DNA of 64,000 nucleotides from NCBI GenBank assembly GCA_016288795.1, contig JAEELI010000005.1:268-64267 (forward strand), written 5' to 3'. The translations under genes and the position numbers were made by a program. The notes under the pieces are model-generated. The model was not told where the DNA came from. It did not search any database and saw only the letters and a list, made by a program, of their open reading frames with translations. Of the stretch, positions 2,810-28,685 are shown piece by piece (positions within the stretch are counted from its first letter, which is position 1; every line of letters begins with the position of its first letter). This stretch comes from Bacillales bacterium (GTDB taxonomy: Bacteria; Bacillota_I; Bacilli_A; RF39; UBA660).

Positions 2810-3886
2810 TTATTTTAAATTTTTAATTAATTCATCTTTTTTCATAGTGCTATATCCCTTTAATCCTTGTTCTTTAGCAACTTTCTTTAATTCAACTAAA
2901 GTCATTGCACTATAATCAACTTTTGGAGTTTTTTCAGCTTTCTTAGTTTCCTTTTTAGGAGCGTCAGCTTTTTTTACTTCCTTTTTATCTTCTTTATTTT
3001 CTTCTTTTTTAGTTTCTTTTACTTCTTCTTTAACTTTGATTTCTTTCTTAGGTTCTTTAACTTCTTTAACTTCTTTTTTATCCTCTACTTCAGTATCATC
3101 TTTTTTAGCCTTATCAAAGTTTTCAGATTTAATTAATTCTTCCATTCTTGTTTCTTCTTTAGTTGCTCCCTTTTTATCTTCTTCAGATATATAATCTACT
3201 AATTCTAATCCATTTGCTTCACAGATTGCATTATTAAGAACTCCTAGCATAACTCTGATAGAACGAACTGCATCATCATTTCCAGGAATAACAAAATCTA
3301 CATCATCTGGATCACCATTAGTATCCACAATACCAAATACAGGTATTTTTAATTTTCTAGCTTCTTTAACTGCATTAAATTCTTTCTTAGGATCTACTAC
3401 TATTAAAGCTTGTGGTAATTTTTCCATTTCTCTAATACCACATAGAATTTTATTTAGTTTATCGTATTCTTTCTTTAAACCAATAACTTCTTTTTTAGGT
3501 AGCATTTCAAACTTACCACTTTTTTCCATTTCTTCAATTTCTTCAAGTCTTTTTACACGACGACGAATAGTTCTAAAGTTAGTAAGTGTTCCTCCTAACC
3601 ATCTTTCAGTAACATAGAAAGATTTACTTCTTAATGCTTCTTCTTGACAAACTTCTCCAGCTTGTTTCTTAGTTCCAACAAATAGGAACTTTCCTCCATT
3701 CTCAGCAATTGTCTTAATTTCATTATAAGATTCCTCTAACAATGCTTGAGTTTTTTGCAAGTCAATGATATATATATCCTCTCTTGCAGTCCAGATATAC
3801 TCTTTCATCTTTGGATTCCATCTCTTAGTTTGATGTCCAAAATGAACTCCAGCTTCTAATAAATAACTCATAGAAACTACGGCCAT
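2810..3886 (-). CDS. rpsB: 30S ribosomal protein S2 with a long Lys/Glu-rich C-terminal extension ending in a Rho_N/SAP-like helix-hairpin motif
   Basis: From the ATG at 3886: [27 protein letters not shown]..., the S2 signature. About 110 extra C-terminal residues ([22 protein letters not shown]...) end with [31 protein letters not shown]. Confidence 0.85.
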
Positions 3887-4036
3887 AAAATAATCACTCT
3901 TCCTTTCGTTTTTCTTCTTAGTTTTATCTTCATTTAACACCACTATAAATAGCACTCGACATTAAACTAAAAACTAATGTTTATTTGCTTTTAAAGCCAA
4001 AATTATTTTATCAAATTATTATATTTAATACAAGTA

Positions 4037-5080
4037 TTAATTATCTTTATTATCTCCATTATCACTATTTGGAATTAATCTTCTAATTAATTCATCAGAA
4101 GGTTCATCTTCCAGCTTAGAAAGTTCGTAGCTTAATGCTGCCAGCAATAATTCTGCAGGATCCGGATTCTCCGGATCAATTATATGTAAGTCTTCTGGAT
4201 TTTCAACTTTCTTTTTCTTACTTTCATTCAATGTTAACTCCATATTCAAATTAACTAATGCAAATAAATATTTCATTTGAATATCATTTAAATAGTTAAT
4301 ATATAAACCAATATATGTATATTTAAAGTTTTCATTTTCTAAAACATCTTTATAATATTCTTCTAATTCATATTCAGGTGAAAGTATTTGAAACACATCT
4401 AATTTAGCGGCTATTTTTTTAGGTGTTAATGATGCCATTATTCCTAAATTATCTAAGTATTCTCTATCAGTAACTACATTATCTGTTAATAGAACATCTT
4501 TAAATACGTCTATTTCTATATCGTAGTCTCCATCATCATCTACTAAAACAAAAGTCTTATCATGATAATATGAAGTTAATAAAGTTAATGATCCATCTTT
4601 ATTTTCTATTAATTCATCATAGTCTTCGGTTCGAACTTCATCTTCTATGCAATATCTTTCAACTTCATCTTCTTGACATCTAGTATTATGAACTAATTTA
4701 TAACGTAATCTAAGCGGAAAAAATAGTTCTAATTGAGGATGCATATAAGACGGAGCTTCATTAAATACTTTGTTTCGATAATTAATAATCTTTTGAATAT
4801 TACCTTCCCTTATTAACTCTAAATATGTATTGCAATCATCCTTAAGTTTTTTTAAACTGTGAGGTCGAAAATCAACTTCATCAATAATATTCATATCAAA
4901 GTCAATATTAGCCTTATTAAGATTATTAATTAAGCCCACTATATCTGATATAAGAGTTAACAACTCTAAACTTTTTGAATATAACGCTTGAACTTCATCA
5001 GTATCCAATTCCTCTTCAACCATATTATTTATGGTTGAATTATACTTTTTAAAATTTTTAAAAGACTCAATAAACTTCAT
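4037..5080 (-). CDS. hypothetical acidic cytoplasmic protein, translationally coupled to queH
   Basis: The ATG at 5078-5080 overlaps the queH stop (ATGA on the minus strand). The protein is rich in D/E with no TM segment and no recognised motif. Confidence 0.55.
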   Translation of the reverse strand: MKFIESFKNFKKYNSTINNMVEEELDTDEVQALYSKSLELLTLISDIVGLINNLNKANIDFDMNIIDEVDFRPHSLKKLKDDCNTYLELIREGNIQKIINYRNKVFNEAPSYMHPQLELFFPLRLRYKLVHNTRCQEDEVERYCIEDEVRTEDYDELIENKDGSLTLLTSYYHDKTFVLVDDDGDYDIEIDVFKDVLLTDNVVTDREYLDNLGIMASLTPKKIAAKLDVFQILSPEYELEEYYKDVLENENFKYTYIGLYINYLNDIQMKYLFALVNLNMELTLNESKKKKVENPEDLHIIDPENPDPAELLLAALSYELSKLEDEPSDELIRRLIPNSDNGDNKDN

Positions 5081-5706
5081 ACTTCCCCCTCGTCTTTTCG
5101 TTTGCTTAATAAGCATCCACAGTAATCTTGCCTATATAAATTGTATTTTTTAGACAACTCTATAGATTTTTTATAACCATCATTTTTCTTGAAATCACTA
5201 TATAACCATCTGATTTTGTGTTTTTCTCCTAAGCTTTCCCCAATTTTATTAATAACTTGAGCATTTTTATATGGACTTACAGTTAAAGTGGTTCCAAAAA
5301 AATCATATTTTTTATTATATGCTATTTCAGCACATTTGTTAAGTCTAAATTCATAACATATATGACATCTTGCTCCACCCTCTTTATCCTTTTCATGGCC
5401 ATCAATTAATCTTCTGTAATCATCATTATTATATTCAGAGTCCATAAATGATAAATAAGGTATATTTAATTCTTTAATTAATCTAATCTGTTCTTGTTTT
5501 CTTTTTTCATATTCCCCTAGGGGCTCTATATTAGGATTATAATATAGAATTGTAATATCAAAGTAATCCTTTAAATAACTAATCACTTGGCTAGAACAAG
5601 GGCCACAACAACTATGTAATAATAACTTAGGTCTAGATTCTAAACTAGATATTATTTCTTGACATTTCTTATCATAATTAACTTTTTCATTATTCATAGA
5701 GGACAC
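5077..5706 (-). CDS. queH: epoxyqueuosine reductase QueH (DUF208 family)
   Basis: LLLHSCCGPCSS cysteine motif plus the downstream CHICY and CGC cysteines typical of QueH/DUF208. Length about 209 aa. Confidence 0.7.
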   Translation of the reverse strand: MSSMNNEKVNYDKKCQEIISSLESRPKLLLHSCCGPCSSQVISYLKDYFDITILYYNPNIEPLGEYEKRKQEQIRLIKELNIPYLSFMDSEYNNDDYRRLIDGHEKDKEGGARCHICYEFRLNKCAEIAYNKKYDFFGTTLTVSPYKNAQVINKIGESLGEKHKIRWLYSDFKKNDGYKKSIELSKKYNLYRQDYCGCLLSKRKDEGEV

Positions 5707-5758
5707 ATCCGTTTTTAATTATACTACATGTTTATAGTAAATCACAAAAAAATATCAG

Positions 5759-7519
5759 CTATGAAGCTGACATTTTTATTTTCATTTCTGATAATTTACC
5801 AACTATGATACGATCTGGAACACCTGAACCATTTAGATTAGAGCCAAAGGTGACAGGAACATCAAAGCATTTAGATGTATTGAAATCACTTATATCTGGG
5901 TAATTACCAAGTTCGAGTATCTGGCTAAAATCTGCTTGATAGTACAAAACGTCAGATTTTCTAATTATATTTATTCTAGTTGTTGATTTATTAAGCTGCA
6001 CGGTCGAGACGTGGCCTGTTCCATATTTGTATGCCAGTTCATAGTTATTCCCCTGCTTTCTGACATAAATACCTGGGTAATACGAATCTCCCTCGTTTTT
6101 AGCATTAAATAATGTTGCTTGATTATAACTTTGGTTAGTAAAATCGAATTCGTTAATAACAAACGAAACTACGAAATCCTTGTGAAGATTTGCTAAACTA
6201 AATAGACTTACATCGGCAGAAACCGAAGAAGTTCCAGTTCCATCAAATACGTGGATAGCAGGACTTGAGAACGCTTCTGTTAAAGTTCCTCCAACGAAAT
6301 CTTCTATTGCATCATCTATCATTTTATAAATGTTACTACCGTCATCAACAAATCTAACATACATGTCCGAAACTTCAGCATCTAAGAATCTACTAGGCAT
6401 TGGATCGCCATTTGAATCAAAACTAACACCAAAAGTAACTGGAGTATCGAAGGTTTGAGATAATGTTGAAACATCTAAGACAAACACTGGTAAATCATCG
6501 TTTAAAATGTAATAAACTTTGCCATTATAACGAACTATTTTGAATGTTTCAACTTCATCGGGTTCAAAACTCAATTTAACAGATTTAATTCCATTACCAA
6601 CTTGGAAGAACCATTTATAGTTTTGAATTCTAAATGTAATACCCGGATAAGGTGCTGCCTCAAGCAATGAATTAATAACTGTATTACTTTGAGCATTACC
6701 AAATCTAGAACTATCAATATCTAATATTGTGAATCCCATTTCAAAATCTTTTAAATAATTTTCTTCACTAAATAATCTAATACCAGTATCAATATAATCT
6801 GATCCACCAAAATCCATATAATCTTCCGTAAATGCATCTATATCAAGACTTTCGCCATCTTCAATCAAAGATAAAATACTCTTAAATGGTTTATTACTTG
6901 TTCCAGTTGCGTTTTCATCTATCCATAACCAAATTTTATATGATATAGAAGACGCTGCGGGGATAGCTACACTATCAATAACATAATTTGATTTAGTTGT
7001 GTAAGTATTTAAAGATGTATCATCTTGTATTTTATTTGCTATATATGTTGCACTTATTCCATTACTCTCAAACTCTTGCAATTCAGTCAAAGCTTGAGCT
7101 TCTAAAAATTGTTCATAATTTCCAGAACCAATTTTTTTCTCAACATAAGCCTTCATTTTACTGTTTTCTATATAAGTGCTACCATCAGATAAAGTTGTTA
7201 AACCAACATTATAATCAACATCGGTATTTGCACAATGATTAGTAACTATATAAGTTACTGGCGTTAAATTAGATTTAGCGTTTTGATCACTCATTGGCGA
7301 TGAACTACTAAACTCCAATATTTCCGGATCACTCATATCAATTGTTAAACAACTTATTGAAGAGGATGTTGTGGATACAATTGTCTCAGAAAAATTAACT
7401 GAATCATTAAAAAAGCCATGTGAAAAACGAACAACCAAAAAGATTAAAACGAATATAATCGCTTGGTTTGCTAGAATCAATACTTTTATCCATTTTTCGT
7501 TCTTAAATACTTTTTTCAT
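5759..7519 (-). CDS. hypothetical secreted/surface protein with an N-terminal signal-anchor
   Basis: 586 aa. The N-terminus KWIKVLILANQAIIFVLIFLVV is a single TM helix or uncleaved signal. The rest is Ser/Thr/Asn-rich with no catalytic motif. Confidence 0.6.
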   Translation of the reverse strand: MKKVFKNEKWIKVLILANQAIIFVLIFLVVRFSHGFFNDSVNFSETIVSTTSSSISCLTIDMSDPEILEFSSSSPMSDQNAKSNLTPVTYIVTNHCANTDVDYNVGLTTLSDGSTYIENSKMKAYVEKKIGSGNYEQFLEAQALTELQEFESNGISATYIANKIQDDTSLNTYTTKSNYVIDSVAIPAASSISYKIWLWIDENATGTSNKPFKSILSLIEDGESLDIDAFTEDYMDFGGSDYIDTGIRLFSEENYLKDFEMGFTILDIDSSRFGNAQSNTVINSLLEAAPYPGITFRIQNYKWFFQVGNGIKSVKLSFEPDEVETFKIVRYNGKVYYILNDDLPVFVLDVSTLSQTFDTPVTFGVSFDSNGDPMPSRFLDAEVSDMYVRFVDDGSNIYKMIDDAIEDFVGGTLTEAFSSPAIHVFDGTGTSSVSADVSLFSLANLHKDFVVSFVINEFDFTNQSYNQATLFNAKNEGDSYYPGIYVRKQGNNYELAYKYGTGHVSTVQLNKSTTRINIIRKSDVLYYQADFSQILELGNYPDISDFNTSKCFDVPVTFGSNLNGSGVPDRIIVGKLSEMKIKMSAS

Positions 7520-17983: not shown

Positions 17984-19801
17984 TTATTTTTCTTCAAATT
18001 TTGCTTCTTCTACATTATCGTCTTTTTTATCTTCTTTAGCTGAAGATTCATTATCTTCATTTTCTGGTTTAACATTTTGATATACTTTAGCAGCTAAGTC
18101 CATTGCTACTTTAGATAATTCATCAGTTTTCTCTTTAATCTTATCTGTATCTTTTCCTTCTAATAATTCTTTTAATTCTTTAATCAATCCTTCAGCTTTT
18201 TCTTTATCAGCAGAATCAACTTTATCTCCAAGATCTTCTAGTGCTTTTTCAGTAGAGAAAATCATTGAATCAGCATTATTTCTTATTTCTGCTTCTTCCT
18301 TTCTCTTTTCATCTGCTTCTTTATTTGCTTCAGCTTCTTTCATCATCTTATCTATTTCTTCATCTGATAAGTTTGTAGATGATGTAATAGTAATTGATTG
18401 TTCTTTTCCAGTTCCTAAATCTTTAGCTTTAACATTAACAATACCATTGGCATCAATATCAAAAGTAACTTCAATTTGTGGAACTCCTCTTTTTGCTGGA
18501 GGTAAATTAGTTAATTGGAAATTGCCCAAGGTCTTATTATCAGTAGCCATTGGTCTTTCCCCTTGAAGAACATGAATATCTACAGCAGGTTGATTATCTG
18601 CAGCAGTTGAGAACACTTGACTCTTGCTTGTTGGAATTGTTGTATTTCTTGGAATTAAAACTGTCATTACATTACCTAAAGTTTCAATACCTAAAGATAA
18701 TGGAGTTACATCTAATAATACAATATCGTCTACTTCGCCAGTTAAAACTCCACCTTGAATTGCTGCGCCCATTGCAACAACTTCATCTGGGTTAACACCT
18801 TTATTTGGCTCTTGACCTAATTCTTTTTTGACTAATTCTTGAATATAAGGAATACGTGTTGAACCACCAACTAATATAACTTTATCAATATCTGATGCTT
18901 TTAATTTAGCATCCTTTAATGCTTTTCTAACAGGTTCTAGGGTTGAGTCAAATAAATCACGACATAAGTCTTCAAATTTTGCTTTAGATAAACTCATTTC
19001 CATATGTAATGGACCTTCATCACTTTGAGCAATAAATGGCAAACTAATTTGAGCATTAGTCATACCCGATAAATCTTTTTTAGCTTTTTCAGAAGCGTCC
19101 TTAACTCTTTGCATTGCCATCTTATCTTTAGATAAATCAACACCATGTTCCTTTTTAAATTCTGAAACTAGATAATCACTAATACGTTCATCAAAGTCAT
19201 CTCCACCTAAACGATTATTACCGCTTGTAGACTTAACTTCAAATACACCATCCCCTAATTCAAGAATAGATACATCGAATGTTCCTCCACCTAAGTCATA
19301 AACTAAAATAGTTTGTAGTTTATCTTGCTTATCTAATCCATACGCTAATGCTGCTGCGGTTGGTTCGTTGATAATTCTTTCAACTTCTAAACCAGCAATT
19401 TTACCTGCATTCTTAGTAGCTTGTCTTTCAGCATCGTTAAAATATGCAGGAACAGTAATAACTGCCTTTGTTACTTTTTCTCCCAAATAACTTTCTGCAT
19501 CTTTCTTTAACTTTCCTAAAATTTTTGCACTTATTTCTTCAGGTGTCCATTTCTTATCATTAGCTTCTACTTTTTCACTAGTTCCCATTTTTCTTTTAAT
19601 TGAAGAAATAGTATTTTTAACATTAGTTACAGCTTGTCTTTTCGCTGTTTCTCCTACTAACTCTTCATCGCCTTTAAAGGCTACTACTGATGGAGTTGTT
19701 CTATTTCCTTCACTATTTGGAATAACCTTAGGTTCTCCACCTTCTAAAACTGCAACACAACTATTTGTTGTTCCTAAATCAATACCTATAATTTTAGCCA
19801 T
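17984..19801 (-). CDS. dnaK: chaperone DnaK (Hsp70)
   Basis: [24 protein letters not shown] and an EEVD-like C-terminus. The start was moved to the ATG at 19801 because the GAGGAG RBS abuts the first ATG. Confidence 0.92.
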
Positions 19802-19815
19802 TATAATCATCTCCT

Positions 19816-21497: not shown

Positions 21498-22757
21498 TTA
21501 CTTAATTCTTCTAGCTTCAAGATAGAATCTTTTATCGTAACTATGTCCCATTGAGAAAGTCTTTCTTGGTAACGCACCATCAAGGATAACAGTTTTAAAT
21601 AAATCATCTTTACTCATTGCATCGAATATTATTCCAACATTACCATCTTTTTTGGCAAATTCCTTAGTAACCTCTTCTCCATGAATATAATCTATACTAC
21701 CACTGTGATCTTGTAAGTATTCATCTAAGAATATTTGAATAGAACCAACAGGGATATTAGATTTAGGATTCTCAATATATAAAACCTTATCTATATCTTT
21801 TGTTACTAATTCAAACTTTTGACCATGACCATCCTCATTAATATCATAATACTTATATAAACTATCAATTAAATCTTCAACATTAGTTTCAAATACAACA
21901 CGATGGATGGCTTCGAATTCTAAAGCTTCACTATGTAGGTTAACTAATTCAACTAAAGCATATCTTGCTGGATGATTTAAGTATTCTTCTTCACTCATAC
22001 TTTCTTTTAATTTTTCATAACAAGCTTTTGCTGTAGCAAGCGAATGATTACCATCACCCATGGCAAACAATAAAACTCCCTTATCACTAACACCATACTT
22101 TTTAGAAAAATTATCTGGATCAGCGAGATTTTCTAATCCTCTAATTATTTCATCAATAATCTCTTTTCCTAATTTATAACCTTTAATATGACCACCATTT
22201 TGCATCAAATCAAAATCGTATACAATATCATCATTAGTAACTTTAGTTTTTAAACTCTCAATTATACTCTTATTAGAATCATCAATTAATATCATAATAT
22301 GCGGTAATTCTAACAAAGCATTTTCTCTAACTTTAACTCTTGGTGGTATTCTTTCAATAACAGTTTTTTCTGTAGCTCTAATAAGGGTTTGAGAACCCTT
22401 TTCAAATGAATAATCTTCTAAATCAACTATTCCCATTAAACCTTCTCTAACTCTGCCATCCATTTGAGTTCTCTCTAAATATATCATTGAGTCTTTATAT
22501 TCAGAAAAAATATCATCTTTTAACATTTTTTCCATATTAAGATTAATATTTTTAATTCTTTCTTCTACATTACTATCATTTAAGTAAATTTCTGGAAGTG
22601 TAATATTTAAAGTTGATGGACTATCGCCAACAATCTTTTCAACTTCTTGCCAATATTCTGGTTCAGAAGTATATTGATCACATGCAACAACACTCCATTT
22701 GTGCATATCAATATTTTTTGGAATTAAAATATTCCCTGCCTTAAAAGGTATTTTCAT
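21498..22757 (-). CDS. conserved hypothetical protein, possibly DUF1015 family
   Basis: About 420 aa soluble protein with a GDGNHS motif. The start is probably the ATG at 22757 (MKIPFKAGNILIP), downstream of a GGAG. The family assignment is tentative. Confidence 0.5.
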   Translation of the reverse strand: MKIPFKAGNILIPKNIDMHKWSVVACDQYTSEPEYWQEVEKIVGDSPSTLNITLPEIYLNDSNVEERIKNINLNMEKMLKDDIFSEYKDSMIYLERTQMDGRVREGLMGIVDLEDYSFEKGSQTLIRATEKTVIERIPPRVKVRENALLELPHIMILIDDSNKSIIESLKTKVTNDDIVYDFDLMQNGGHIKGYKLGKEIIDEIIRGLENLADPDNFSKKYGVSDKGVLLFAMGDGNHSLATAKACYEKLKESMSEEEYLNHPARYALVELVNLHSEALEFEAIHRVVFETNVEDLIDSLYKYYDINEDGHGQKFELVTKDIDKVLYIENPKSNIPVGSIQIFLDEYLQDHSGSIDYIHGEEVTKEFAKKDGNVGIIFDAMSKDDLFKTVILDGALPRKTFSMGHSYDKRFYLEARRIK

Positions 22758-22858
22758 AAAAATCATCTCCAAACTTATTATCTTATAAAACGCCAAAAAT
22801 ATCAATCTACTACTATAGATTTGTTAAAAATTATGATATTATTAATATGGTGATGATT

Positions 22859-23941
22859 ATGTGTGAATCATATGTATACTTAAGAATATTATTAATAGTA
22901 GTTAATATATTTAAAATAGTATGTATAGTCGCTCCTCTACTAATAATAGTTATGGGAATAATCGATTTTTCCAAGGCAGTTACAAATAGTGGCGCAGATC
23001 TTGGTAAAGTAGTTGGAACATTTCTTAAAAGAGTTATAGCCGGAATAGTTATATTTATTCTTCCTTCTACTATATCAGCTTTATTTAATGGTATAGGTAA
23101 TTACAATTCAGATATTTTCTTTGTTTCTTGTAAGGATAATTTAGAAGATATTGATATATACAAAGAAGCTTATGAGAAAAGGAAAAGGGAACAATTAGCA
23201 GAAACAGAAAAAGAAATTGCTAAAGAAATAAAAAGAATTAGAAAAGAAGAAGAAAAAAGGAAATCTGAAGAAACTCCATATTTTATTAAAGGTAATAGCA
23301 ATAAAGTTAAACCAACCGTGGTTCCACCTCCTGATGATATTCCTTCAACTGGAGATAGAAGATATCCAACTATAACTCAAAGAAACTATGGTCATATAAA
23401 ATTTTGTGGTAACGGCAAAACCGTTAAGTCTTCTGGATGTGGTGCTATTGCATATGCTACTATAGCTTGGGCGTTTAATCCTAGCCTTTTCAGTTCAGAA
23501 GAAGATGCAATAGAAGATGTTGCAAATTATATGTGTAGCACATACCATAGTGGCGGAGCTTTAAGTGCTGCTGCTTACTCACCTACTGCTGCATTCGGAA
23601 AAGCCTTATCCGAAAGATATCACATCACTTCTAGTGGCAATTTACTTCACACTTCTGGATATACTAGATGGAATGATTCATGGGAACAATTAATATTAAA
23701 TAAAACTAACAATGGATATGGAGTAATAATACTAATATCTGGACATTATATAGTTGTTCATAGTTCTAGCCAATGTGGAAGCAATAAAGTATATGTTAAA
23801 TATGCTGGTGCCATAGAAAATAAAACATCTGATTCATGTTATACAATAAAGGGTTTGTATGATAAAACATACAATTATAGAAATAGATGTAATGAAGTTC
23901 ATAAATGCGGCTGGAATGGCGCTTGGGCATTTAGAGGTTAG
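22859..23941 (+). CDS. membrane-tethered protein with a C-terminal papain-fold (peptidase C39-like) domain
   Basis: Two N-terminal TM helices, a KE-rich coiled linker (KEAYEKRKREQLAETEKEIAKEIKRIRKEEEKRK), and a C-terminal domain with SSGCGAIAYATIAWAF (CG.A..A Cys motif) and GHYIVVHS (His motif). The start is the third ATG, which follows GGTGA. Confidence 0.55.
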   Translation: MCESYVYLRILLIVVNIFKIVCIVAPLLIIVMGIIDFSKAVTNSGADLGKVVGTFLKRVIAGIVIFILPSTISALFNGIGNYNSDIFFVSCKDNLEDIDIYKEAYEKRKREQLAETEKEIAKEIKRIRKEEEKRKSEETPYFIKGNSNKVKPTVVPPPDDIPSTGDRRYPTITQRNYGHIKFCGNGKTVKSSGCGAIAYATIAWAFNPSLFSSEEDAIEDVANYMCSTYHSGGALSAAAYSPTAAFGKALSERYHITSSGNLLHTSGYTRWNDSWEQLILNKTNNGYGVIILISGHYIVVHSSSQCGSNKVYVKYAGAIENKTSDSCYTIKGLYDKTYNYRNRCNEVHKCGWNGAWAFRG

Positions 23942-23953
23942 AAAGGATTTGTT

Positions 23954-24685
23954 ATGAAGAAAATTATATTTGGACTATTAATAATTCCTCTTATAGTAAT
24001 AAAAGCCTATGCTATTGAAATTTATGATGAAAATACTGTTTACTATAAACTAGATATTAATAAATCATTTAAAGAAAAAATAGTTATATCTTATCCTCAA
24101 ACAATAGAAGAAGATATTGAAGAATTAAGAGAAGATGAAGATTGGGCTCCAATGACAATGAGTGAAATGTTTTATTATGAAGACATTGAACCATTAATAA
24201 ATAATCATGACATCTTCTATGATAAAAAAATTGATAAAGGTTATCCAACAACAGTTACTTTAACATATGAATATTTAGATGATAATTTTGTCAATGGTTA
24301 CTTTATTAATAATTGCTTTGAAGAATATGAAGTAGCTAGTTTATCAAATGAATATTACATAGATTTATCAGGAAACTTTGAATGTTATAATGATAAACCT
24401 ATAAAAATAAGTGTCAAAACAAATTATGATGTAATTGAAACTACTGGTAATCATAAAAAAAATGAGATTACTTGGACAATTGATGATAACAATTATAAAA
24501 ATACAAACATATTTTTAAGATTAGCAAAAAATCAAGAAGATACAAGCTCTAATACAAAAACTAGCATAGTCTCTTCAATATTCAAAATGATTATTCCAAT
24601 AATAATTATTGTTCTATGTGTTGTATTACTAGTTAATAAAAATAAGTTAGTAGAATTTATAAATAAAAAAAGGAATCAATTCTAA
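23954..24685 (+). CDS. hypothetical type-I membrane or secreted protein
   Basis: Cleavable signal (LLIIPLIVIKAYA|IEIY) and a C-terminal TM anchor (MIIPIIIIVLCVVLLV). AAAGGA RBS. Probably co-transcribed with the upstream + strand gene. Confidence 0.55.
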   Translation: MKKIIFGLLIIPLIVIKAYAIEIYDENTVYYKLDINKSFKEKIVISYPQTIEEDIEELREDEDWAPMTMSEMFYYEDIEPLINNHDIFYDKKIDKGYPTTVTLTYEYLDDNFVNGYFINNCFEEYEVASLSNEYYIDLSGNFECYNDKPIKISVKTNYDVIETTGNHKKNEITWTIDDNNYKNTNIFLRLAKNQEDTSSNTKTSIVSSIFKMIIPIIIIVLCVVLLVNKNKLVEFINKKRNQF

Positions 24686-24695
24686 TGATTCCTTT

Positions 24696-25787
24696 TTAAA
24701 TTAACTTTAATAATATTTCATTCATTATGTAGAGTTTTTTAGGATTAATTCTAACATATCCATTTTCATAGATTAATTCTCCACTTTTTATTAATGGCTT
24801 GATTGGAAATTCATCTTGCATATTAATGTGATATTTATTATAAAACTCTTGCAAGTTTATTCCTTCAGTTTTTCTTAATCCTAACATTAATTCATATTCT
24901 CTAATACTCTTTTCACTTAATAAAACATCATCACTTTTAAACCCATCATTAATGTAACTAGTGATATTTTTTGTATTATCATATCTAACACCAGAAATAT
25001 ACCCAGAGGCTCCACAGCCAAAGCCATAATATTCTTGATTATTCCAATATACTAAATTATGTTTAGATTCATAGCCGGGCTTTGCAAAATTACTTATTTC
25101 ATAATGCTTATAATTATTTTTAGTCAATTTTTTGCATATGTATTCATACATTTCAAAATCTAATTCTTCGGGAATATTATTTATTTTTTTATATCCCAAA
25201 TAAGTATGATCTTCAATCATCAAACTATAAGTGCTTATGTGTTCTGGATCTAGATTTAATAAACATTTTAAATCTTTTCTTAATGTAATCATTTTTTCAT
25301 TAGGAAGTGCATATATTAAATCTAAGTTTATATTATTAAAACCCAATTTCCTAGCTAATTGCATCTTTTTCTTAGCATCCTCATAAGAACCTTTTCTATT
25401 CATAAATACTAAATTATCTTTATCAAACGATTCGATGCCAATGCTTAATCTATTTACATTAAATCTTTTTAATAAAACTAGTAAATCTTCCGTAATATCT
25501 TCTAAATTACATTCAAAAGTAAACTCTTCTAAATCTTTTTTATTTAATAGATTAGTTAACGCTAATAAATATTCAATTTCTTTCATTGAAAGACAGCTAG
25601 GAGTTCCTCCCCCAATATATATAGTTTTAATACTCTCTCCCATATATCTTTCTTGTATTTCTTCCTTTAATTTTTTTAAATATGAAACTGCCCATTCTTT
25701 ATTGTATAAAACTTTACAAAAGTCACAGTAAGTGCAGATTGAAGAACAAAAAGGAATATGTATGTAAACACTACTAATCTCATCCAT
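24696..25787 (-). CDS. hemW: radical SAM heme chaperone HemW (HemN-like)
   Basis: YIHIPFCSSICTYCDF radical-SAM CxxxCxxC motif with HemN-like architecture. 363 aa. Its position after lepA matches the B. subtilis lepA-hemN arrangement. Confidence 0.8.
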   Translation of the reverse strand: MDEISSVYIHIPFCSSICTYCDFCKVLYNKEWAVSYLKKLKEEIQERYMGESIKTIYIGGGTPSCLSMKEIEYLLALTNLLNKKDLEEFTFECNLEDITEDLLVLLKRFNVNRLSIGIESFDKDNLVFMNRKGSYEDAKKKMQLARKLGFNNINLDLIYALPNEKMITLRKDLKCLLNLDPEHISTYSLMIEDHTYLGYKKINNIPEELDFEMYEYICKKLTKNNYKHYEISNFAKPGYESKHNLVYWNNQEYYGFGCGASGYISGVRYDNTKNITSYINDGFKSDDVLLSEKSIREYELMLGLRKTEGINLQEFYNKYHINMQDEFPIKPLIKSGELIYENGYVRINPKKLYIMNEILLKLI

Positions 25788-25792
25788 TTTAA

Positions 25793-26731
25793 TTACCTTG
25801 TATAGCCATTATTATTCTTTGCGTATTGTGAATGATAATCTGCTAAAGCTGTATATAAAGTTCTAAGATCAGGTGTTAATAATACAGGCATTGCACTAGC
25901 ATTAGTATCTTGAGTTTTTCCTCTATCTTCATTTTCAAAATATTTTGTTACTTTTTTAGAATATTCAGATCTATTAGCGTTAAATAAATTACATACTCTA
26001 TCTTGGGTTAATGCATATTTAACTTGATTTTTAATCATTTCCTCTAAATCCTCAGGGCTAATTGCTTCTCTTCTCTCTGAATATGTTGAAGGATTTCTCC
26101 TTTTTATAATTTCTGCAGCCTTTTTATCAGAAATACTATCTTTTAAATACTTTCTAACTTCTTTATCCTTAGTTGCATAGTAATCACTTATCCAAGCAAT
26201 TATACCAGCCTTAGCAATTTCTTGGTCAGTAGTGTCATTATTATATAGATAATGCAAACTGCTATAATCGCTTCCTTTTGATGATAACTCTTTAACCAAT
26301 GCATCCTCATCAATTTTAAATAATTCTGCAATAGTAGCTGGTTTAGCTCTATAAGTTAACATTAGATGTCTTAAATAATAAAATTGCTTTTTTTCATCAC
26401 TTGCTAACCACTCAACTTTTAATTGTGGAACTGTTCCAATTTCCTCTCCGTTTGAACGACGTAAATTCATAACCGATCTTATTCCTCCTAATCTTTTTCC
26501 GTTCTCTAAATTCTCTTTTCTCTTTTTAATAATTTCATCATATAATTTTTCGCCACTATATGGAAATGCGGCATATATTCTTTCACGATCTGTTAATCTT
26601 CTTTGAACAGTTGAAGAAGATATACCTGTTCGATTAGATAATTCAATATCTGATTCATTGAATTCTAAAAACAAATTAACTAAAAGAATTGTCTCTTTAA
26701 TAATTCTTTCTTCTTGTTCACGACTAACCAT
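25793..26731 (-). CDS. hypothetical protein with an N-terminal SpoIIID-like HTH
   Basis: [20 protein letters not shown] resembles the SpoIIID/sigma-70 region-4 HTH. The likely ATG at 26731 (8-nt spacer after AAGGAG) overlaps the lepA stop, so the gene is translationally coupled. Confidence 0.5.
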
Positions 26732-28526
26732 TTTCATCACTCCTTAATATACTTAAGAATGCTTCACTTGGAACTTCAACTCTTCCAACCATCTTCATTC
26801 TCTTTTTTCCTTCTTTTTGTGCCTCTAATAGTTTCCTTTTTCTAGAAACATCACCACCATAACATTTAGCAAGCACATTTTTTCGCATTGCTGAAACGTC
26901 TTCTCTGGCTATTATTTTCGAACCGACACTAGCTTGGATACTAACTTGAAACATTTGTCTCGGAATAACTTTTCTTAATTTTTCAGTAATACTTCTTCCT
27001 TTTTCATATGCTTCATCTTTATGAACTATTAATGATAATGCATCTACTTTTTCGCCATTTAGTAAAATATCCATTTTTACTAAGTTCGATTCTTTATAAC
27101 CTATTATATCATAATCAAAAGATGCATAGCCATTAGTTCTACTTTTTAGTTTATCATAAAAATCATAAACTATTTCCCCAAGGGGCAATTCATAATGGAT
27201 ATTAACTCTATCTTCATTAATATACTCTACCTCTTTATATATACCTCTTTTATTTTGACACAATTCCATAATTGCCCCAATGTATGATGCAGGAGCAATA
27301 ATATTAGTATAAATATATGGTTCCTTAATATATGATAATCTTTCTCTTGGAGGCATTTTATTTGGATTATCGACTAATTCCATTGTCCCATCAGTTAAAT
27401 ATGCTTCATATAAAACTGTTGGACTTGTAACAACAATATCCAAATTAAATTCTCTTTCCAATCTAGTTGTAATTATTTCTGAATGTAATAGTCCTAAAAA
27501 GCCAGTATGAAACCCAAAGCCTAAGGCCTCACTAGTTACAGGTTCAAATACTAAAGATGCATCATTTAATTTTAATTTATTTAAAGCATCTCTTAGGCCC
27601 TCATATTTATTTGATTCAATGGGATATATACCAGAATAAACCATCGGTTTCATTGGTTTATATCCTTCAAGGGGAATAGTTGCTTCATTATCTAAAATAG
27701 TTATTGTGTCTCCAACATGGACACTAGATATATCCTTAATGGCAGCACAAATAAATCCTACTTCCCCACTAGTTAATTCATCTAATAAAACTTCCTTAGG
27801 AGTTTTAACTCCCAACTCTATAACTTCAAATATCTTATCCGAATTAAACATTTTAATTTTATCTTTAATAGATATTTTACCATCTACAACTTTAACTAAT
27901 AATACTACTCCTTTATAACTATCAAAATAAGAATCATATATTAAAGCTCTAGTTGGTTTTTCCACATCTATTTTAGGAGCAGGTATTTTTTCAATTACTC
28001 TATCTAATAATTGTTGAACTCCTTCTCCAGTTTTACCACTGCAAAGAATTATATCTTCTTTTTTAAATCCTAATATACTTTCTAATTCCTTAGTTACCTT
28101 AGGAATATCCGCATTAGGTAAATCTATTTTATTAATTACAGGTATAATCTCTAATTCGTTTTCCATTGCTAAATATAAATTAGCTAAAGTTTGTGCTTCA
28201 ATGCCTTGAGCAGCATCAACAACAAGTATTGCACCTTCACAAGCCGCTAAGCTTCTTGAAACCTCATATGAAAAGTCAACATGACCCGGAGTATCTATTA
28301 AATTTAATATATAATCTTCACCATGATAATTATAATTAAGCTTAACCGTATTTAATTTAATGGTTATTCCTCTTTCTCTTTCGATATCCATATTGTCTAA
28401 TAGTTGCTCTTTCATTTCTCTTTTTGAAACAGCTCCGGTTATTTCCAATATTCTATCTGCAAGAGTGCTTTTACCATGATCAATATGAGCGATTATAGAA
28501 AAATTTCGAATGTTATTTTCGTTCAT
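26724..28526 (-). CDS. lepA: elongation factor 4 (LepA)
   Basis: [26 protein letters not shown]1 motif, DTPGHVDF, and the LepA-specific C-terminal domain. The start was placed at the internal ATG at 28526. Confidence 0.92.
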
Positions 28527-28660: not shown

Positions 28661-28685
28661 TTTAATAGCTTGAGAGGGGATGCGT

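Follow-up and report, generated by a model that had tools for sequence, protein, structure and literature searches.

We have examined two adjacent genes, A and B, in a stretch of 64,000 nucleotides (hereafter the window) from contig JAEELI010000005.1 of a Bacillales bacterium. The gene order here is lepA-(315-aa gene)-hemW-[A-B]-DUF1015-hrcA-grpE-dnaK, with all the genes except A and B on the - strand, and the DNA around the pair is of low GC content (about 0.22-0.34). A and B are the only non-nested + strand open reading frames (ORFs) of at least 90 amino acids (aa) from position 1 to 28.6 kb, non-nested meaning not inside longer - strand ORFs, and the next + strand genes begin at 28680. A first-pass annotation of this DNA had described both ORFs, the conserved order lepA-hemW-hrcA-grpE-dnaK with A-B between hemW and the gene preceding hrcA (the DUF1015 gene), and the pair as the only + strand genes in 20 kb. 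It had also read A as a protein with two N-terminal hydrophobic helices, a K/E-rich helix and a C39- or C39_2-like domain with a cysteine motif and a histidine motif, not fused to an ATP-binding cassette (ABC) transporter, and B as its dedicated anchored partner, with a signal-like N-terminus and a C-terminal transmembrane (TM) segment. All of this stood, homologues were found for both ORFs, and the two genes proved to be conserved together. Beyond that description, comparison with relatives indicates that the TM pair of A is a conserved, Cys-flanked VirB2-like module, and that the window copy of A lacks the third catalytic residue of its family.

Gene A codes for 360 aa from the ATG at 22859, or for 364 aa if it starts at 22847. 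The first start is favoured because a GGTGA Shine-Dalgarno sequence sits 5 nt upstream of it; the NCBI protein identical to the product of gene A (P0001) has 360 aa. Residue numbers for protein A are given here in the 364-aa frame starting at 22847. Upstream of the gene, TTCATA-17-TATTAT on the + strand (22753-22781) is a weak sigma-70-like match. Gene B begins 12 nt past the stop codon of A and has its own ribosome-binding site (GAAAGGA), so that both genes make up one operon. Sequence searches found relatives of A at E 1e-37 to 1e-23 and of B at E 3e-9. These homologues, and the position of B homologues directly downstream of A homologues at five other loci, indicate that A and B are real genes. 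The palindrome at the end of B is probably a terminator shared, in both directions, by B and hemW. The coordinates of all these features are collected in Table 1.

Table 1. Features of the A-B locus in the window and of one related cluster; roles of residues are predicted. T4SS, type IV secretion system; ICE, integrated conjugative element.
Feature	Position	Strand	Remarks
dnaK	17984-19810	-	
DUF1015 gene	21498-22805	-	likely true start MKIPFKAG near 22757
Intergenic/promoter region, DUF1015 gene / gene A (divergent)	22758-22858		weak sigma-70-like match and GGTGA ribosome-binding site of A
Gene A	22859-23941	+	hairpin anchor, helical K/E-rich linker, C39_2-like cysteine peptidase domain
Cys-flanked two-helix TM hairpin of A	22862-23131	+	Cys6 to Cys95; T4SS_pilin/VirB2-like
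Linker of A	23153-23353	+	K/E-rich long helix 103-141, then low-confidence stretch 141-169 (model)
C39_2-like papain-type domain of A	23354-23938	+	residues 170-364
Gln178 of A	23378-23380	+	oxyanion position
Cys198 of A	23438-23440	+	nucleophile position
His300 of A	23744-23746	+	general-base position
Tyr319 of A	23801-23803	+	position of Asp, Asn or Glu in the family
Gene B	23954-24685	+	243 aa, signal peptide, beta-rich ectodomain, C-terminal TM anchor
Palindrome	24667-24697		perfect 12-bp stem, A/T runs either side; overlaps stop codons of convergent B and hemW
hemW	24696-25787	-	
Clostridium-like T4SS/ICE cluster with two hairpin proteins	L003:9532-13178 (same in L004)		

The C-terminal domain of protein A carries both SSGCGAIAYATIAWAF and GHYIVVHS. 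Three relatives of A were returned by a word-indexed search and a profile built on those found more. An exhaustive HMMER search gathered 9,405 cluster representatives at E <= 1e-3, with 65 at E <= 1e-30; about 60 of the relatives found are full-length, and many of the proteins found by profile resemble A in their first ~100 residues only. Among the 76 proteins with the C-terminal domain of A, 36 matched PF13529 (Peptidase_C39_2, best E 1.8e-10) and two matched PF03412 (Peptidase_C39, E 1.2e-4). The profile check proposed in the first-pass annotation was hence positive for the relatives and negative for the window protein itself, which does not reach the PF13529 gathering score (24 bits). The relative P0002, which aligns to A at E 1.4e-37 (30% identity over 96% of the length of A), scores 27.9 bits with PF13529 and another one, P0095, scores 34.7 bits, and in both cases the match spans almost all of the profile. 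Counting non-gap residues in the 76 sequences, Gln178 (71/71), Cys198 (71/71) and His300 (75/75) are invariant. On the basis of this transitive homology and of the conservation of the motifs, the assignment of the domain as a divergent Peptidase_C39_2-like one is well supported at the sequence level. A papain-like fold is weakly supported by modelling. The AF2 model of A, built from 9 sequences, had a mean predicted local distance difference test score (pLDDT) of 68.5, about 80 in the C-terminal domain, and in it helix 198-210 begins with Cys198 and strand 300-305 with His300, as would be expected of a papain-type arrangement. In BFVD the top match of this model was a phage protein named 'papain-like cysteine protease AvrRpt2' (E 2.9e-3, probability 0.94). 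Solved structures detectable by sequence profile were none, the only matches being spurious ones of the hairpin to TM segments of a G-protein-coupled receptor and FliP. According to the model, the stretch between the long charged helix and the domain (residues 141-169) is probably disordered.

The other end of A, with hydrophobic helices modelled at residues 9-46 and 52-83, belongs to a module of constant layout: a Cys, a long hydrophobic helix with an invariant Pro, a K/R-rich loop with the pattern D-F-x-K ... K-R, a second helix with F-x-x-P, and a second Cys. In the window, a hidden Markov model (HMM) of this module matched gene A alone (E 2.7e-25). Within the A family, 59/60 non-gap residues at position 6 and 62/68 at position 95 are Cys, and in 83 further proteins that have in common with A the module only, both flanking cysteines show little or no variation. 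PF18895 (T4SS_pilin) was matched by 11/76 of the first group (best E 2.8e-6) and 13/83 of the second (best E 9.8e-7); those scores that were viewed individually are under the 26.6-bit cut-off, and the window protein has no match. In NCBIfam, residues 20-92 of A weakly match a Mycoplasma conjugal-transfer family (E 0.003). In some relatives (P0188, P0184) the module is preceded by a cleavable signal peptide, and in the secreted, Cys-rich proteins P0034, P0063 and P0210 it is found at the C-terminus. Together with the basic loop, these arrangements point to a hairpin with both ends outside the cell and the loop (residues 40-63) in the cytoplasm, and Cys6 and Cys95 would then probably form an external disulfide. 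We have also seen shorter proteins with the hairpin: a 223-aa paralogue directly upstream of the A homologue of L001 (L001:7828-8499), with an Asn/Ser-rich and Cys-rich tail and no enzyme domain, a 143-aa protein between ezrA and iscS/thiI (L017:6603-7034) and a 117-aa protein before a gene for a MurJ-like flippase (L018:9884-10237).

The domains carried by this module are varied. Among the 83 proteins that share with A only the module, we found Peptidase_C39_2 of other subfamilies (23), CHAP (5), NlpC/P60 (4), GDSL esterases (4), the endolysin-like domain ELLD (3), Peptidase_C70 (3), M23 (2), Phage_lysozyme2 (1) and VanY (1). A fusion of the module to a glucosaminidase is located after whiA at L015:9968-10999, so that this gene, like the hairpin genes of L017 and L018, has a cell-division or envelope gene as its neighbour. 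A scan of a genome collection returned one locus, L005, from the gut 'uncultured Tenericutes bacterium UMGS1271', in which two genes in tandem (4469-6882) code for module-Big_2-C39-like and module-Big_2-NlpC/P60 proteins, with housekeeping genes as neighbours (brkB, an HD-domain gene and valS). A further case is the comparison of L006 and L012, which come from near-identical genomes and have the same locus, yneF-like-A-B-fhs-hemW. The A homologue has a CHAP head in L006 (P0011) and a C39_2-like head in L012 (P0007). The DNA of both is 96.9% identical up to the middle of gene A and 93.9% identical through B, fhs and hemW, and between these regions the 550-620 bp that code for the head (L006:957-1577 vs L012:1305-1854) cannot be aligned. 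This clean swap between strains, and the diversity of domains found on the same module, show that the catalytic head is an exchangeable cassette, taken mostly from wall-hydrolase domains.

The ectodomain of protein B, about 190 aa long and rich in beta structure, has two cysteines (121 and 144) that are invariant in all complete B copies; the complete copies whose 3' end is intact inside the contig also have a TM segment and a basic tail at the C-terminus. Relatives of B have a lipobox (LLTGC), and window B, without the lipobox Cys, has an A-Y-A type signal-peptide end instead. Direct scans of A and B with Pfam, NCBIfam and PHROGs gave nothing usable and left B without any assignment; PF21946 (LppM) appeared under threshold in 3/7 members of the B family (best E 0.007), window B having no match. 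The indexed database search retrieved one relative of B. In L001, L002, L006/L007, L012 and L013, the gene that directly follows the A homologue is a B homologue with about 30% identity, and B is absent beside the more distant module proteins of L005, L008, L010 and L015. From the L006/L012 comparison, B appears to belong functionally with the anchor and linker half of A and not with its head.

The first-pass annotation had taken the local strand switch as a possible sign of horizontal insertion, to be checked by GC content and codon usage. Our results do not support such an insertion. At third codon positions the GC content (GC3) of A (0.155) and of B (0.123) is native in comparison with the flanking genes (0.12-0.20). 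Distant relatives, with a HemW that shares only 47% identity with that of the window, also have A-B near hemW, which speaks for a long-standing association rather than a recent insertion, although in L001 and L002 the pair is at other positions. Recent horizontal transfer was rejected on both grounds. No match of A was found by tblastn against phage and plasmid collections, and neither the viral_contigs scan (IMG/VR) nor a first metagenome scan returned relatives. The annotated parts of the 64-kb window showed no T4SS, phage or plasmid genes; they include smc, rnc, topA, mutS, ABC/FtsX pairs, lon, relA, rpsB and murG, and a XerC/D-like recombinase is found 21 kb from A-B. Elsewhere, module genes likewise have housekeeping neighbours, such as gyrA/tilS/suf, addA, brkB/valS, dnaE, topA/atp, whiA, ezrA/iscS, the gene of a MurJ-like flippase, and fhs/hemW. 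A-B looks like a native chromosomal module and not a recent import. In practical terms this is a modest result for the window, where the pair is an envelope operon of native origin rather than a mobile island.

The explanation that we favour, with moderate confidence, is that A is a hairpin-anchored, extracytoplasmic, C39_2-like cysteine peptidase that acts on the cell wall, and B a co-anchored accessory that positions or regulates it. A wall-hydrolase function is suggested by the CHAP, NlpC/P60, M23, glucosaminidase and lysozyme domains carried by the same anchor. Peptidase_C39_2 is itself listed in phage-lysin surveys as an enzymatically active domain of endolysins from phages of Gram positive bacteria. 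The window has a homologue of MurG, from which we infer that the host probably makes peptidoglycan. The task of A would be to cut the peptidoglycan of its own producer when the wall grows or the cells separate, attacking stem peptides or cross-bridges with endopeptidase or amidase activity. The hairpin, with its basic loop in the cytoplasm and both ends outside, would be clamped by the disulfide between the flanking cysteines, and the long charged helix and the flexible stretch would hold the catalytic head off the membrane. B would have two tethers, a signal peptide or lipid on the N-terminal side and the TM helix on the C-terminal side. Since B goes with the anchor and linker half, a role in positioning, stabilising or regulating A is more likely for it than the inhibition of one particular active site. 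Between the possibilities left by the first-pass annotation, a processing, maturation or immunity pair or a wall-remodelling module, the second has gained ground, given that there are wall-hydrolase heads on the same anchor and that B is unchanged by the swap.

Several observations weigh against this explanation. Protein A matched no Pfam family even at E <= 1 in a direct scan (window:22847-23941). When its model was compared with the PDB by Foldseek, the top ranks were mostly clan-CA peptidases, all with non-significant values (E >= 0.1), the neighbours including SpeB, tegument-like deubiquitinases, Josephin, MCF and interpain, with PCAT1 in 23rd place (E 2.5). The AF2 model of B, from a two-sequence alignment, was too poor for a structure search (pLDDT 45.6). 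Swapping of heads at the level of strains is less usual in a housekeeping autolysin than in a lysin or toxin. In the literature searched we found no Peptidase_C39_2 domain with biochemically shown peptidoglycan cleavage or bond specificity, so the assignment of the substrate rests on the domains that share the anchor. Finally, at the column of the presumed third catalytic residue, 19 residues past the His, D (46), N (18), E (7) and Y (1) are found among the 76 sequences, the only Tyr being that of the window protein, and Ser298, just before the Gly-His, is found where 70/76 members of the family have Pro. The activity of the window copy may be reduced by the loss of the third residue. One could go further and take this copy as catalytically attenuated or non-enzymatic, a wall-binding or scaffolding protein, for which both substitutions would speak. 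We consider this improbable, because the Gln/Cys/His core and the ORF are intact and the codon usage is native; many papain-like enzymes stay active as Cys-His dyads.

The exchange of the head cleanly between near-identical strains, as happens in polymorphic toxins and lysins, also brings to mind a bacteriolytic weapon against neighbours with B, extracytoplasmic and in this clade always adjoining A, as the cognate immunity protein. Immunity genes normally co-vary with the toxin domain, and yet B is 94% identical in DNA across the change from a C39_2-like to a CHAP head. As a domain-specific immunity protein B was rejected on these grounds, the heads of L006 and L012 being different while B and the downstream DNA are 93.9% identical; its persistence unchanged across the swap indicates that it is not a head-specific inhibitor. 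Besides, A is firmly membrane-anchored with no evident system for release or delivery nearby, and the distant members in L005, L008 and L015 have no B. A weapon with its antidote is in our opinion an unlikely interpretation of the pair.

We give a similarly low probability to A being a stand-alone C39-type protease that matures a secreted peptide or protein, either one with a double-glycine leader or B itself, released from its anchors. The domain is of the C39 clan, as the PF13529 matches of the relatives and the two PF03412 matches indicate, and PCAT1 appears among the weak structural neighbours. B is doubly anchored like the LppM-type proteins (the resemblance reaches E 0.007 only), and LppM is cleaved and released. 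However, there is no ABC transporter, and the gaps at the locus (about 100 bp and 12 bp) leave no room for a precursor gene. The same anchor with the same B is found with a CHAP head at an orthologous locus, and the other heads on the anchor of A are classical wall hydrolases.

The anchor itself has a possible link to conjugation. In the cluster found in L003 and L004, a 376-aa protein of the P0063 family, with the hairpin at its end, is encoded directly upstream of VirB6-like (TrbL_4), VirB3-like, TraC-like, VirB4-like, hydrolase and VirD4-like genes, and immediately before P0063 there is a stand-alone Cys-hairpin-Cys protein of 121 aa (module HMM E 1.9e-20). A Tad-like pilus operon is located further upstream. 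These profile matches make the anchor of A a homologue of a VirB2-like component encoded in the T4SS locus of a Firmicute. Recent papers, including a 2025 review, describe the T4SSs of Gram positives outside Patescibacteria as devoid of VirB2 homologues, and the stand-alone hairpin of this cluster suggests that the statement may need revising. A could accordingly be seen as a VirB2-like/VirB1-like fusion serving a T4SS encoded elsewhere, or as the remnant of an ICE. The homology of the hairpin to the 121-aa and 376-aa proteins, the PF18895 matches of relatives, the weak match to the Mycoplasma family and the need of Gram positive T4SSs for dedicated wall hydrolases, known from the literature, would all fit. 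Nevertheless, neither the annotated parts of the window nor the surroundings of the module genes of L001, L002, L005-L013 and L015-L018 showed any T4SS gene, and phmmer searches with single L003 proteins, of low sensitivity, detected no T4SS genes in L014-L019. VirB4 or VirB6 genes adjoin only the distant module proteins of L003 and L004, and neither A in the window nor its counterparts at about ten related loci. With native composition and no plasmid matches in addition, we regard a role in conjugation as doubtful. Least likely of all, in our estimate, is that the hairpin is a domesticated VirB2-type pilin that still oligomerises, as a filament or membrane ring, to display interchangeable wall-degrading heads, with B as assembly or docking factor. 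If that were true, these gut Bacillota with small genomes would possess a pilin-based apparatus, chromosomal and independent of any T4SS, to breach their own walls or those of neighbours, the rapid swapping of heads between strains would be the mark of an arms race, and VirB2-like subunits would be widespread in Gram positives, against current reviews.

If A is instead an anchored wall hydrolase with B as its accessory, as we favour, the 9,405 cluster representatives would point to a large group of wall hydrolases in uncultured gut Bacillota, tethered to the membrane in an architecture not described before. The domains themselves are known families, and what appears new is their combination in housekeeping chromosomal contexts of these bacteria; we have not found the association of a VirB2-like hairpin, exchangeable wall-hydrolase heads and a conserved, doubly anchored partner described in the searchable literature. 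Through this context Peptidase_C39_2 domains would gain a connection with the cell wall, and the B family, so far unannotated, one with the hairpin anchor. The exchange of C39_2 for CHAP shows that these surface enzymes diversify in the way that phage lysins do.

Other genes of the window deserve mention. The 315-aa gene between hemW and lepA (25793-26740, - strand) has weak helix-turn-helix-type matches only, with no NCBIfam family, and its ORF overlaps the start of the lepA ORF; the corresponding lepA-hemN order of B. subtilis presumably has no gene at this place. Ribosomal protein S2 (2810-3955, - strand) is unusually long (381 aa), with a C-terminal extension that matches Rho_N (E 4.4e-9). 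A 359-aa protein (30093-31172, - strand) has a SipW/TasA-type signal motif (…GATYAYFS…) and a Cys-rich C-terminus, and is resembled by the 359-aa ORF at 4037-5116, neither having a Pfam match.

A and B can be compared with several known systems. The bacteriocin-processing C39 domains of ComA, PCAT1 and LahT share with A the clan and the order of the catalytic residues, PCAT1 being also a weak structural neighbour, but they are cytoplasmic and A is predicted to be extracytoplasmic. Moreover A has no fused or neighbouring ABC transporter and no gene for a double-glycine precursor, and its type of head is interchangeable with CHAP at the orthologous locus of L006 and L012. The mycobacterial lipoprotein LppM (PF21946) resembles the relatives of B in having an N-terminal lipobox, an ectodomain and a C-terminal TM segment, although the matches of the B family are sub-threshold and window B lacks the lipobox Cys. 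With the T4SS_pilin family (PF18895) of the Patescibacteria pilin arrays, A shares the two-helix hairpin, the basic loop and, by prediction, the position of both ends outside the cell; some relatives of A match the family, the individually viewed scores being under its cut-off, and there are tandem paralogues in L001 and L005. In contrast, A is about three times larger, ends in an enzyme, has no direct match and no nearby T4SS, and gives no sign of polymerising. The VirB1-like hydrolases PrgK, TraG of pIP501, CwlT and TcpG are, like A, membrane-anchored and modular, with papain-like CHAP or NlpC/P60 heads. They are held in the membrane by one TM helix; A lies outside a T4SS locus and has a VirB2-like hairpin and a C39_2-like head. 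This hairpin is related to a protein of a T4SS locus. Finally, A differs from the Peptidase_C39_2 domains of endolysins in falling under Pfam detection, in being chromosomal and hairpin-anchored instead of phage-encoded, and in the Tyr at the third position. It shares with them the PF13529 matches of its relatives, the Gln...Cys...His order, the predicted action outside the cell and the interchangeability with lysin domains.

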